From a virus (Duplodnaviria > Caudoviricetes), in the IMG/VR virus record IMGVR_UViG_3300026035_000001, positions 1,634 to 65,633 of that record: 64,000 bases of DNA, one strand, 5' to 3'. The notes beneath the pieces were generated by a model. That model saw only the letters and a program-made list of their open reading frames with translations. It was not told the origin of the DNA and did not search any database. Below, in pieces: positions 278-3,476 of this stretch (positions are counted from its first letter, which is position 1; each line of letters starts with the position of its first letter). The translations under genes were made by a program, and so were the position numbers.

Positions 278-359
278 GGACCCCGAACGTAAAGCAGGAT
301 GGTCTTGCAAGGGACTTTTAACCCCTCCGTAAGTGGCTCGAAACCACCGGGGTTCGCCA
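278..359 (+). tRNA. tRNA-Lys(TTT), irregular
   Basis: Acceptor GGACCCC/GGGGTTC, G73, CCA; loop CT TTT AA; 9-nt linker before a 5-6 bp D stem; T loop CTCGAAA. Confidence 0.85.
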
Positions 360-362
360 TTC

Positions 363-437
363 GGATCGATAGTTCAGTGCCAGAACGGCGGCCTCTTAAC
401 CCGCGCGTCCGGGGTTGGATTCCCCGTCGATCCACCA
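363..437 (+). tRNA. tRNA-Lys(CTT)
   Basis: Acceptor GGATCGA/TCGATCC, A73, CCA; loop CT CTT AA; D loop AGTGCCA, T loop TTGGATT. Confidence 0.9.
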
Positions 438-442
438 ATTTC

Positions 443-518
443 GTGCCTGTACCCCAACGGTAGAGGGATCGCGTTGAGGACGCGCTCAGTGGGTGTTCGA
501 GTCACCCCAGGCACACCA
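443..518 (+). tRNA. tRNA-Leu(GAG) with short variable loop
   Basis: Acceptor GTGCCTG/CAGGCAC, A73, CCA; loop TT GAG GA; variable region only TCAGT. Confidence 0.85.
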
Positions 519-525
519 TTTTTTT

Positions 526-624
526 GGGTCTGAAACCGTAGACGGTCTAGAAGCGGGACCGAAGATCGAAGTGCCCTTAGCGGCCGGAAGATCGCGGATG
601 TGGGATCGTCGCCCACCTGACCTA
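526..624 (+). ncRNA. tRNA-shaped RNA without a canonical anticodon loop
   Basis: Acceptor-like GGGTCTG/CTGACCT (one U.U), T arm GTGGG-ATCGTCG-CCCAC, V-arm-like GCGGCC-GGAA-GATCGC; no 7-nt anticodon loop, no encoded CCA. Confidence 0.6.
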
Positions 625-625
625 T

Positions 626-700
626 GGCCCTATAGCTCAACGGTGGAGCACCCCCCTGTCACGGGGAAGGTCCGGGGGTCAGCACCCCGTAGGGTCGCCA
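626..700 (+). tRNA. tRNA-Asp(GTC)
   Basis: Acceptor GGCCCTA/TAGGGTC, G73, CCA; loop CT GTC AC; T loop GTCAGCA. Confidence 0.9.
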
Positions 701-705
701 ATCAT

Positions 706-751
706 GGAGGCGTACCGCATAGGCGGATAACGGCGCCAGCCGGCCTCCACA
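706..751 (+). ncRNA. Y-shaped mini RNA (three-way junction)
   Basis: Stem GGAGGC/GCCTCC encloses hairpins CCGC-ATAG-GCGG and CGGC-GCCA-GCCG; 3' tail ACA. Confidence 0.5.
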
Positions 752-754
752 CTT

Positions 755-829
755 CGGAGTATGGGTCAGTGGTTGATCGCTCGGTTTGGGGCCGAGACAA
801 GGCGGGTTCGATTCCTGCTGCTCCGACCA
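755..829 (+). tRNA. tRNA-Pro(TGG)
   Basis: CGGAGTA/TGCTCCG, A73, CCA; loop TT TGG GG. Confidence 0.95.
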
Positions 830-834
830 ATTTT

Positions 835-924
835 GGGCCTTAGCACAGGTGTGCGGCTCGGTTTTATAAACCGGGGCACCGGACGGGTGTAGACGGCTCG
901 GCTCGATACCGAGGAGGCCTACCA
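835..924 (+). tRNA. irregular tRNA with UAU anticodon (nominal Ile) and long variable arm
   Basis: GGGCCTT/GAGGCCT, A73, CCA 922-924; D arm GCAC-AGGT-GTGC; loop TT TAT AA; V stem GCACC/GGTGT; T loop CTCGATA. Confidence 0.8.
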
Positions 925-1271
925 TGAAAGTCATCGCTAAGTATTTGGCGATGGAGCAGCCGCCGCTCCTGCAGCTGTGGGTACATGACGCGCCGCACCG
1001 GCGCATGCACGTGAGGGTGATCCAGGAGTACCGGCGCGCGATCTTGGCGGCGTGCCAGAAGGCTGGGATCATCACGCCGATCGCCGATCCGATCGAGCTC
1101 GATGTGCTGTTCGTCAATCCGTCGTCGCCCGATCTCGGCAATCTTTATCTGGCGCTGGAGCAAGCACTGGATGCGAAGGCACTGCGGCCGATGCCGGGCG
1201 TGGTGGTCGACGATAGCCTGATCGAGGCCGTGAAGATGGCCAAGTATTGGAATCAGGCGAAGAAAAAATAG
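924..1271 (+). CDS. RusA-like protein with degenerate active site
   Basis: PIELDVLF...PDLGNLYLALEQAL...VVVDDSLI matches the RusA pattern (DLDNxxKxxxDAL...DDxxV); SD GAGGAGG 6 nt upstream. Confidence 0.75.
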   Translation: MKVIAKYLAMEQPPLLQLWVHDAPHRRMHVRVIQEYRRAILAACQKAGIITPIADPIELDVLFVNPSSPDLGNLYLALEQALDAKALRPMPGVVVDDSLIEAVKMAKYWNQAKKK

Positions 1272-1348
1272 GATCTCTTAGCTCAACTGGATCGAGCGCC
1301 GGCCTCCGAAGCCGGGAGATCGGCGTTCGAGTCGCCGGGAGATCGCCA
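1272..1348 (+). tRNA. tRNA-Arg(CCG)
   Basis: GATCTCT/GGAGATC, G73, CCA; loop CT CCG AA; A20 present. Confidence 0.95.
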
Positions 1349-1351
1349 AAT

Positions 1352-1439
1352 GGATGGTCCAGGTGCAATGGTGCGCCAGCGGTCTTGAAAACCGTGGCCC
1401 GGGCAACCGGTGGGGGTTCGATTCCTCGGCCATCCGCCA
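1352..1439 (+). tRNA. tRNA-Ser(TGA)
   Basis: GGATGGT/GCCATCC, G73, CCA; loop CT TGA AA; long V arm. Confidence 0.92.
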
Positions 1440-1440
1440 A

Positions 1441-1589
1441 GAAGGGCTGATGCCTCACGACTGCGCCGGATTCGTAGTCATACGTTTGGGTTTGGTATCA
1501 CGATTCAAAGCCTTCCCGGAGGGCCCCGATCAATTCTGTGCAGGCCGGAGGTACGCCGCGCACGCGAGAGAGTTCAAAGCCTCGCACCA
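1441..1589 (+). ncRNA. two irregular structured RNAs, the second ending in ACCA
   Basis: 1441-1515: stems GAAGG/CCTTC, TGATGCC/GGTATCA, GACTGC/GTAGTC. 1538-1589: hairpin GCGAG/CTCGC followed by A-CCA. Both contain TTCAAAGCCT. Confidence 0.4.
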
Positions 1590-1591
1590 AT

Positions 1592-1666
1592 TGCAGGTAA
1601 AGGTCGGGTGACCCGTTCGGTCTCATAAGCCGGAACAGCAGGATTCGAGTTCCTGGCCTGCAACCA
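1592..1666 (+). tRNA. tRNA(CAT), elongator Met or Ile2 type
   Basis: TGCAGGT/GCCTGCA, A73, CCA; loop CT CAT AA; lacks the initiator GGG/CCC; 4-nt D loop. Confidence 0.85.
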
Positions 1667-1671
1667 ATTTC

Positions 1672-1762
1672 GGGTGGCGCAAGTAAGGATCGGCGGTCCG
1701 ATCGCCGCGCTGTAAACGCGGTCCCTTTGGGCAGGATGTTCAACTCAGTCCGTCACCCACCA
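1672..1762 (+). tRNA. tRNA-Tyr(GTA), irregular
   Basis: GGGTGGC/GTCACCC, A73, CCA; loop CT GTA AA; 9-nt linker, D arm GATCGG-CGGT-CCGATC; bulged T stem. Confidence 0.85.
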
Positions 1763-3205: not shown

Positions 3206-3276
3206 CGCTCTCCCTCCGGCGAGGAAACGGCTTTCATACGGCTGTCAGGCGCGATCGACACGCGCGTGAGCGACCA
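3206..3276 (+). tRNA. tRNA(CAT), compact core
   Basis: CGCTCTC/GTGAGCG, A73, CCA; D arm CCTC-CGGC-GAGG with no connector; 6-bp anticodon stem, loop TT CAT AC; V loop CAG; T loop ATCGACA. Confidence 0.75.
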
Positions 3277-3443: not shown

Positions 3444-3476
3444 CCCGGTCCCTTTCCCAGGGGCCGGCCTTTTTTA
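3444..3476 (+). terminator. intrinsic terminator of tRNA array
   Basis: Stem CCGGTCCCT/AGGGGCCGG followed by CCTTTTTT. Confidence 0.85.

Follow-up and report, generated by a model that had tools for sequence, protein, structure and literature searches.

The tRNA genes described here lie in a stretch of 64,000 nucleotides (nt), called the window below, which comprises positions 1,634 to 65,633 of the IMG/VR virus record IMGVR_UViG_3300026035_000001 (Duplodnaviria; Caudoviricetes). The window covers almost the whole of this 65.6-kb phage record, which has direct terminal repeats and a G+C content of about 61%. A co-directional tRNA array fills its first 3.5 kb. With default settings, ARAGORN called 24 tRNA genes within the window and six more just upstream in the record; the called genes span 19 amino acids, and Tyr alone is uncovered. 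The array also contains two genes that were not called, a tRNA-Lys(UUU) gene at 278–359 and a tRNA-Tyr(GUA) gene at 1672–1762. Neither region matched the Rfam families RF00005 (tRNA) and RF01852 (tRNA-Sec) even at E-values up to 10, and there was no match at the Rfam gathering score. The gene at 1672–1762 is the single Tyr tRNA of the phage and completes its 20-amino-acid set.

A two-base link between the acceptor stem and the D arm is among the most constant features of tRNA. The original prediction, made from the window alone, held that both RNAs replace this link with a 9-nt linker containing GTAA, followed by a D arm resembling that of tRNA-Sec, and took the recurrence as a sign of a selected fold or a protein-binding handle. 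The sequence is as it was described: the bases GAACGTAAA at 285–293 in the Lys gene and GCAAGTAAG at 1679–1687 in the Tyr gene are each followed by a perfect hairpin of 6 base pairs (bp).

Secondary structure of the two RNAs

The minimum free energy (MFE) fold of both RNAs consists of a perfect 8-bp acceptor stem, eight unpaired nt, a perfect 6-bp hairpin with a GG-containing loop of 3 nt (Lys) or 4 nt (Tyr), and the anticodon and T arms (Table 1). In these folds, G285 pairs with C348 and G1679 pairs with C1751, so the first base of each putative linker is paired. This eighth acceptor pair covaries among the homologues described below (GC 29, UA 4, and AU 3 in Tyr; GC 17, AU 1, and UA 1 in Lys). 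Because the first linker G forms a covarying eighth pair, the acceptor stem is 8 bp long and the connector 8 nt. The long connector is real, but it is one base shorter than predicted and follows an 8-bp acceptor stem, in the known 8/4 geometry that is allo-tRNA- or Sec-like.

Neither RNA has the canonical combination of a 7-bp acceptor stem, a 5-bp T stem, and a 2-nt connector; the arrangement is 8+4 with an 8-nt connector instead. Canonical 7/5 folds of 285–359 and 1682–1758, obtained with ARAGORN at an 80% threshold, contained two to three acceptor mismatches and were dropped in favor of the perfect covarying 8-bp stems. A Tyr T stem of 5 bp with an A·G mismatch was replaced by one of 4 bp with a single bulged base, which gives 100% pairing with covariation; the 4-bp reading also fits the 11 Tyr members that do not have the extra base. 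The canonical traits that are kept are an anticodon loop of 7 nt in which base 33 is U and base 37 is a purine, the T-loop motif TTCRA, the GG of the D loop, and the NCCA end.

Table 1. Positions of the two long-connector tRNA genes, their structural parts, and the end of the tRNA array in the window
Feature	Positions	Strand	Remarks
tRNA-Lys(UUU), long-connector 8/4 design, 82 nt with encoded CCA	278–359	+	MFE fold; 97.1 bits with model R2
Lys acceptor stem, 5' strand, 8 nt; partner 348–355	278–285	+	99% of cells paired; 5/8 pairs with compensatory change
Lys fifth helix X, 5' strand ACG; partner 328–330 (CGT, variable loop)	287–289	+	57/57 cells paired
Lys spacer TAAA, from helix X to the D stem	290–293	+	4–6 nt in homologues; first U and last A kept
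Lys D hairpin, 6-bp stem 294–299/303–308, loop TGG	294–308	+	MFE fold
Lys anticodon arm, stem 310–314/322–326 (A314·C322 mismatch), loop CTTTTAA, anticodon TTT 317–319	310–326	+	
Lys fifth helix, 3' strand, within the 6-nt variable loop 327–332	328–330	+	Pairing counts; RNAalifold
Lys T arm, 4-bp stem 333–336/344–347, 7-nt loop CTCGAAA	333–347	+	100% of cells paired
Lys acceptor stem, 3' strand 348–355; discriminator G356; CCA 357–359	348–359	+	
tRNA-Tyr(GUA), long-connector 8/4 design with bulge, 91 nt with encoded CCA	1672–1762	+	98.4 bits with model R1
Tyr acceptor stem, 5' strand, 8 nt; partner 1751–1758	1672–1679	+	8/8 pairs with compensatory change; 97.9% of cells paired
Tyr 8-nt connector CAAGTAAG	1680–1687	+	Last four, TAAG (1684–1687), invariant in the family
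Tyr D hairpin, 6-bp stem 1688–1693/1698–1703, loop CGGT	1688–1703	+	6/6 pairs covary; 96.3% of cells paired
Tyr anticodon arm, 5-bp stem, loop CTGTAAA, anticodon GTA 1712–1714	1705–1721	+	
Tyr long variable arm: U, CCC/GGG stem with 3-nt loop, then CAG	1722–1734	+	Flanking U and C invariant
Tyr T arm, 4-bp stem (1735–1738 with 1746–1747 and 1749–1750), G1748 bulged, loop TTCAACT	1735–1750	+	100% of cells paired; 3/4 pairs covary
Tyr acceptor stem, 3' strand 1751–1758; discriminator A1759; CCA 1760–1762	1751–1762	+	
Intrinsic-terminator-like hairpin and T run	3445–3476	+	Just after the last tRNA of the array

Conservation of the tRNA-Tyr design

Homologues were gathered from 27 related phage loci, with the open reading frame (ORF) 924–1271 inside the array as the anchor, and from many unrelated loci found by pattern scans of IMG/VR (loci are denoted by L numbers). 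The Tyr design is present in 50 genes with 48 distinct sequences, located on phage contigs, in alphaproteobacterial tRNA arrays, and in the cultured Sinorhizobium phage Phosso. Phosso was the single relative found by a BLAST search of GenBank phages with the window and two other family members; in this 469-kb phage the Tyr-class gene lies in a tRNA cluster and is unannotated. The covariance model R1 describes the class as an 8/4 tRNA with a 7–8-nt connector ending in UAAG, a D stem of 6 bp whose loop is YGGU or UGG, a variable arm of the UCCC...GGC type, and A73, all of which are present in the window copy. When R1 was applied to all tRNAs of the first loci, 40 Tyr matches scored 71–106 bits and the rest scored at most 49 bits.

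In an alignment of 36 distinct Tyr sequences (A6), 98.1% of the helix cells pair and 22 of the 25 pairs are changed on both sides. The shuffled control gave 65% pairing and slid controls gave 36–49%. The consensus comprises an 8-bp acceptor stem, a 7–8-nt connector, a D hairpin of 6 bp in which the loop reads YGGU or UGG, G26, a 5-bp anticodon stem, a long variable arm, and a 4-bp T stem, with a one-base bulge on the 3' strand of the T stem in 25 of the 36 sequences and none in the other 11.

The first Tyr scan demanded TAAG in the connector. A second scan fixed the anticodon loop, the variable arm, and the T loop only, leaving the D region and the connector free, and it returned 14 further tRNAs, all of which belong to the Tyr class (70–97 bits) and have connectors ending in UAAG. 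This motif ends the connector in 48/48 distinct sequences. A73 is equally invariant (48/48), G1–C72 is kept in 46 of the 48 and CCA is encoded in 40, the T loop is TTCRAYT throughout, and the D loop holds GG. G16–C63 and A15–U52 are also invariant in all 48 sequences and, for that reason, give no covariation signal. A pairing between the connector and the loop of the variable arm, seen by eye in the window (CAAG with UUUG), is not kept in the homologues. Pattern matches without a tRNA fold (L076, L077, L085, L091, L095, L096, L113–L115, L119, and L121) were discarded as chance.

One pattern scan of 185,579 prokaryote genomes gave 20 Tyr matches, 18 of them in dense arrays (10–27 tRNAs per 8 kb). 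The carriers of these 18 arrays are contigs of alphaproteobacterial metagenome-assembled genomes (MAGs) from Xanthobacteraceae, Stellaceae, and Hyphomicrobiales, one gammaproteobacterial MAG contig, and a contig of Mesorhizobium sp. SP-1A. The hosts look alphaproteobacterial because the genome matches sit mainly on alphaproteobacterial contigs, which agrees with the 8/4 tRNAs reported in PMC5389517. The Mesorhizobium gene (L109, NZ_JAVXZD010000002.1) belongs to an array of 12 tRNAs. Its 1.19-Mb contig comes from a cultured isolate, and the array presumably represents a prophage or an integrated array.

Two Tyr genes depart from the common pattern. The Tyr-class gene L038:1522–1613 has C1–G72 instead of the bacterial G1–C72, and its eighth pair is A8–U. 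Phosso (PV764938) contains a second unannotated tRNA-Tyr(GUA) gene (L001:2674–2756) whose connector is AAAA (4 nt) and whose D stem has 5 bp and a loop of 5 nt; it scores 45 bits with R1 and stands between the canonical form and the long-connector class.

The tRNA-Lys(UUU) family and its fifth helix

Pattern scans and the covariance model R2 gave 19 distinct Lys-class sequences at 69–99 bits, 10 of which were unused in building R2. This model describes an 8/4 tRNA(UUU) whose connector starts with A-R-C-G and pairs with C-G-Y of the variable loop, followed by a D hairpin with a TGG loop, and the window copy has each of these features. In the Lys alignment, 92.1% of the cells pair and 18 of the 26 pairs show compensatory change. 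R2 found no Lys-class gene in Phosso or in four 180–360-kb contigs that carry the Tyr class. One Lys-class gene, L110:2034–2116 on the minus strand, has the 8-nt anticodon loop CUUCUUAA instead of CUUUUAA, which may be a frameshift-type loop or a recent insertion.

The family consensus is A-R-C-G-U-N-N-A for the connector and N-C-G-Y-A-W for the 6-nt variable loop. Connector bases 2–4 are complementary to variable-loop bases 4–2 in 19/19 sequences (57/57 cells), with the pair types GC 14 and AU 5, CG 19 (invariant), and GC 17 and CG 2. Two members have A-G-C-C in place of A-R-C-G, with the matching change in the variable loop. The sequences of L031 and L021, which share the same D arm, differ in their helices by double changes only, one each in the acceptor stem, the anticodon stem, and a fifth-helix pair. 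The association held in pattern scans with the connector fixed and the loop free, and also with the loop fixed and the connector free. RNAalifold predicts the fifth helix unaided. It is nested and forms no pseudoknot, with the D and anticodon hairpins enclosed. By these comparisons, the Lys "linker" is predicted to be a nested fifth helix with the variable loop and not a free strand: the proposed 8-nt stretch is present, but its bases 2–4 form a covarying 3-bp helix. Nor do the two RNAs share GTAA as a unit, since Tyr conserves UAAG, and Lys conserves ARCG and a U...A frame after it.

This helix bears on the possibility that the extra bases are excised or rearranged after transcription, as in an intron, to leave an ordinary mature tRNA. 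All that speaks for such a process is the extra length of about 6 nt at a single site. However, taking the extra bases out would still leave an abnormal D loop, and the inserted bases of Lys are constrained by pairing with the variable loop. We know of no bacterial mechanism for excision at position 8/9, and we find this explanation hardly credible.

The covariance models part the two families from ordinary tRNAs (Tyr at least 70 bits versus at most 49 bits; Lys at least 69 bits versus at most 52 bits), and sequences left out of model building still score 69–99 bits. The search for the linker in related tRNAs, suggested at the outset as a check, found it conserved across both the Tyr (48 distinct) and Lys (19 distinct) families. 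Default ARAGORN overlaps just 5 of the 50 Tyr-class and 1 of the 19 Lys-class genes. Rejection by standard finders, together with the replacement of both genes by other forms in relatives, might be expected of decaying or inactive tRNA genes with an insertion in the 8–9 region. Pseudogenes of this kind are very improbable here, because 48 and 19 distinct sequences keep every helix via compensatory change, because the anticodon loop, UAAG, and A73 are invariant, and because the scores are bimodal and not graded. The comparative analysis demonstrates, at the level of sequence, that both are conserved RNA genes with the predicted 8/4 structure.

In nearly all relatives, the Lys(UUU) gene lies directly upstream of the tRNA-Lys(CUU) gene and after a small Cys-rich ORF. 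The window has the same order, with the Lys(UUU) gene directly downstream of ORF 70–273 and upstream of tRNA-Lys(CUU). This ORF (67 residues, Cys/His-rich) stops 5 nt ahead of the Lys(UUU) gene, and its position is kept in nearly all relatives, whichever Lys design comes next. The designs at this syntenic site are the long-connector form, a 74–75-nt form with a conserved 17-nt D region, and near-canonical forms. In the 74–75-nt form (L003:4515–4589, L010:404–478, L023:3821–3894, L027:456–530, and others), the D region GAGUAGGAAAGUAGCAC is almost invariant; it can form at most a stem of 4 bp that includes a purine-purine mismatch, closed by a 5-nt loop in which GG is missing, and ARAGORN makes no call. 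Among the related loci, ARAGORN called Lys(CUU) in 23 and Lys(UUU) in just 3. Lys(UUU) bodies with a long variable arm occur in other phages, and further unusual bodies were observed at L045:1640–1734, L055:9001–9095, L054:5945–6034, and L056:1099–1181.

Restriction of the long connector to two isoacceptors

A descriptor scan of every locus then collected asked for tRNAs in which a compact D hairpin with a GG loop is combined with anticodon and T arms and an acceptor stem free of mismatches. Connectors of at least 6 nt were found with the anticodons GTA (35) and TTT (6) only, while connectors of 2–5 nt accompanied about 20 further anticodons that have this compact D arm. One long connector with the anticodon TGT (L025) arose because the wrong acceptor had been chosen; in L006, the corresponding sequence, inspected by eye, has a 2-nt connector. 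A compact D arm of 5–6 bp is frequent in these arrays (Ser, Thr, and Lys-CUU). The connector lengths in the scan thus indicate that the compact D arm is a general habit of the arrays, whereas the long connector is special to the two isoacceptors. The resemblance of the D arm to that of tRNA-Sec holds for the 6-bp stem and the small GG loop, but this compact arm is common to many array tRNAs and has only 3 bp in several Lys members. The proposal of a selected fold is supported by the abundant compensatory change that preserves both designs and from the limitation of the long connector to GUA and UUU, although close relatives hold other designs.

The Tyr and Lys types share an array in the window, L004, L021, and 10 of the 18 alphaproteobacterial arrays. 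Ten Lys members came from arrays retrieved via the Tyr gene alone; therefore, the two classes appear to travel together. Their co-occurrence, the nearly identical sequences of the Lys and Tyr D arms within L004, and the invariance of the Tyr UAAG, for which no RNA partner was found, would all suit a handle. On this explanation, a dedicated phage or host protein recognizes the connector, alone or together with the D hairpin; it could be an enzyme that modifies the tRNA, a chaperone, or a factor for sorting or protection. We consider this quite unlikely, because no conserved partner gene was identified, with no common gene set of the carriers examined, and the neighboring ORFs 70–273 and 924–1271 match no Pfam or PHROG family. 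Moreover, the carriers extend from phages of 65 kb to jumbo phages of 470 kb, and RNA-RNA pairing explains the conserved connector bases of Lys.

Comparison with known tRNAs

Mukai et al. (Nucleic Acids Res 2016/17; PMC5389517) described 8/4 tRNAs and allo-tRNAs, including, in the main text, 8/4 tRNA-Ser and tRNA-His of alphaproteobacterial phage tRNA clusters. The present RNAs are like the 8/4 tRNAs of that main text in their 12-bp acceptor branch (8+4), with one bulge in some, in their compact Sec-like D arm, and in their occurrence in alphaproteobacterial phage clusters. The 12-bp branch is found in both Tyr and Lys, with the optional bulge in Tyr. In contrast, the species given in the main text of PMC5389517 are Ser, His, Cys, Sec, and suppressor-type tRNAs; it presents no long acceptor-D connector, no Tyr or Lys(UUU) member, and no counterpart of the Lys fifth helix. 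Allo-tRNAs proper combine a long variable arm with Ser- or Leu-type identity, whereas the present Tyr has a long arm but A73 and a GUA anticodon, and Lys has a 6-nt variable loop.

The RNAs resemble tRNA-Sec (RF01852) in the 8-bp acceptor stem and, for Tyr, in the 6-bp D stem with a 4-nt loop and the long variable arm; the D arm of the window Lys has 6 bp with a 3-nt loop, and this varies in the Lys family. They differ from tRNA-Sec in the anticodons (GUA and UUU, not UCA), in the 8+4 branch (12 bp, not 8+5 with 13 bp), and in the 8-nt connector. With the ordinary class II tRNA-Tyr and class I tRNA-Lys (RF00005), they share the anticodon loop, the T loop, the GG of the D loop, and the CCA end, as well as A73, G1–C72, and the long variable arm in Tyr. 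Unlike the RF00005 tRNAs, they are without the 7/5 geometry, the 2-nt connector, and the 7–11-nt D loop with A14, R15, and A21.

The tRNA-Ser(UGA) gene of the window has exactly the 8/4 plan, with a connector of 2 nt versus 8 nt in Tyr and Lys. This gene (1352–1439) and tRNA-Ser(GCU) at 2882–2969 both show an allo-tRNA-like plan, with an 8-bp acceptor stem, a 4-bp T stem, a 2-nt connector, a 6-bp D stem with a 3–4-nt loop, and a long variable arm. The former reaches the Rfam tRNA-Sec gathering score (48.2 bits) despite its UGA anticodon.

The literature searched, which included the main text of PMC5389517, nowhere describes a long acceptor-D connector. Both the 8/4 frame and a D arm of Sec-like type were already known, while the 8-nt connector, the membership of Tyr and Lys(UUU), and the fifth helix were not found in this literature.

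Other features of the array

A tRNA with a UAU anticodon at 835–924 is 90 nt long with a long variable arm and has the 3' end ...CCATG. The ATG at this end is the start of the ORF 924–1271, which encodes 115 residues inside the array and shows 52–68% identity across the 27 related loci. Three elements of the array are irregular: a tRNA-Gln(CUG) at 2570–2639 whose D arm is very small, a 76-nt element at 2805–2880 that ARAGORN folds at a low threshold only, giving it an 8-nt anticodon loop, and a 71-nt tRNA at 3206–3276 with a CAU anticodon and a D stem of 2–3 bp.

Discussion

In this study, we described two tRNA genes of a phage array that depart from the canonical plan between the acceptor stem and the D arm. 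From their pattern of conservation, they are probably genuine phage tRNA genes under purifying selection, which have a non-canonical plan and would be expected to be charged and used in translation. In the predicted structure, the 8-bp acceptor stem stacks on the 4-bp T stem to give 12 bp, as in the known 8/4 tRNAs. The tiny D loop retains both Gs through which it docks onto the T loop, and the 8-nt connector replaces U8–N9. Because a D loop of 3–4 nt cannot supply A14, R15, and A21, the 8–14 and 15–48 core contacts would be lost. The extra connector bases may rebuild the core beside the D stem, where the strands 8–9 and 44–48 run side by side. In Lys, this rebuilding would take the form of a Watson-Crick mini-helix, and the pairing of the connector with the variable loop turns the four-way junction into two three-way junctions and a short fifth helix. 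In Tyr, the invariant UAAG may pack against both the D stem and the long variable arm at its base. Host LysRS and TyrRS would then charge the RNAs, and the phage would use them in translation. Charging and decoding are expected because the identity elements are kept, the elbow is canonical, the acceptor branch has 12 bp, and Tyr is the sole amino acid missing from the set of called tRNAs. That a terminator-like hairpin closes the array also speaks for function.

Several observations weigh against this interpretation. Close relatives carry other Lys(UUU) and Tyr designs, some of them canonical, at the same syntenic positions, and the long connector therefore appears dispensable in the lineage of this phage. 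The D stem of the Lys homologues has 76% of its cells paired, with 3 bp only in some members, and the Lys discriminator varies among G, A, and U. The energy model is indifferent to the fifth helix (−27.8 versus −29.2 kcal/mol), which is neither favored nor excluded. This helix has two variable pairs only, with perhaps three to four independent changes, and the Lys alignment A10 was made with a model that already contains it. For the Tyr connector, mutual information between the connector columns and all columns revealed no Watson-Crick partner, and its putative role is suggested by its invariance.

Phage-borne tRNAs are known to counter the tRNA-cutting defences PARIS AriB, PrrC, and retron-Eco7 (PMC11464382; bioRxiv 10.1101/2025.02.04.636281; PMC11555353). 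AriB of PARIS cuts tRNA-Lys(UUU), and the D-loop change U16>C impairs the cleavage (bioRxiv 10.1101/2025.02.04.636281). PtuAB of retron-Eco7 degrades tRNA-Tyr and PrrC targets tRNA-Lys, and phage tRNAs counter both (PMC11555353). The tRNA-Lys(UUU) and tRNA-Tyr of phage T5 are the same two isoacceptors as those described here, the T5 copies rescue translation when the host tRNAs are cut, and changes in the D loop and the anticodon stem block AriB (PMC11464382; bioRxiv 10.1101/2025.02.04.636281; PMC11555353). Unlike the present family, the T5 tRNAs differ from those of the host by point substitutions, as far as the cited papers report. Against evasion by shape, T5 is reported to counter retron-Eco7 by tRNA supply and not by a resistant shape (PMC11555353).

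The match of both isoacceptors to known nuclease targets, the combination of canonical anticodon loops with a strongly altered body, and the several alternative Lys(UUU) bodies of the relatives might also be found in decoys. These would be tRNA look-alikes that soak up or mislead host anticodon nucleases or tRNA-binding defence proteins and remain unused on the ribosome. However, the Tyr family keeps A73 and G1–C72 (48/48 and 46/48), an encoded CCA, a 12-bp acceptor/T stack, and a canonical elbow, none of which a pure decoy needs. Tyr would then also be the one amino acid absent from an otherwise full set. Decoys are therefore unlikely in our judgment, and we favor tRNAs that would be charged and would decode.

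For such functional tRNAs, the choice of isoacceptors may be tied to the evasion of tRNA-cutting host defences, by analogy with the systems cited above. The rebuilt D region may keep decoding while removing what the nucleases read. The different forms taken by the Lys(UUU) body, both at a single syntenic site and in other phages, would fit, on the same analogy, a diversifying pressure on the body of that tRNA. A more far-reaching proposal, which we put forward tentatively and regard as doubtful, is that phages translate with tRNAs that lack the four-way core, with Lys as two stacked three-way junctions, and that this body arose and is kept in just Lys(UUU) and Tyr because nucleases do not recognize it.

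These genes have consequences for both annotation and tRNA biology. Default ARAGORN misses about 90% of them; as a result, phage genomes including Phosso are recorded without tRNA-Tyr or tRNA-Lys(UUU) even though these are present. Orthogonal tRNA design could draw on their Tyr and Lys scaffolds, which are naturally divergent. If the RNAs are charged and decode, the range of tRNA shapes that RNase P, the synthetases, EF-Tu, and the ribosome would have to accept grows. The limitation of the long connector to isoacceptors attacked by PARIS, PrrC, and retron-Eco7 leads to the hypothesis that phages may evade these defences through the shape of their tRNAs.

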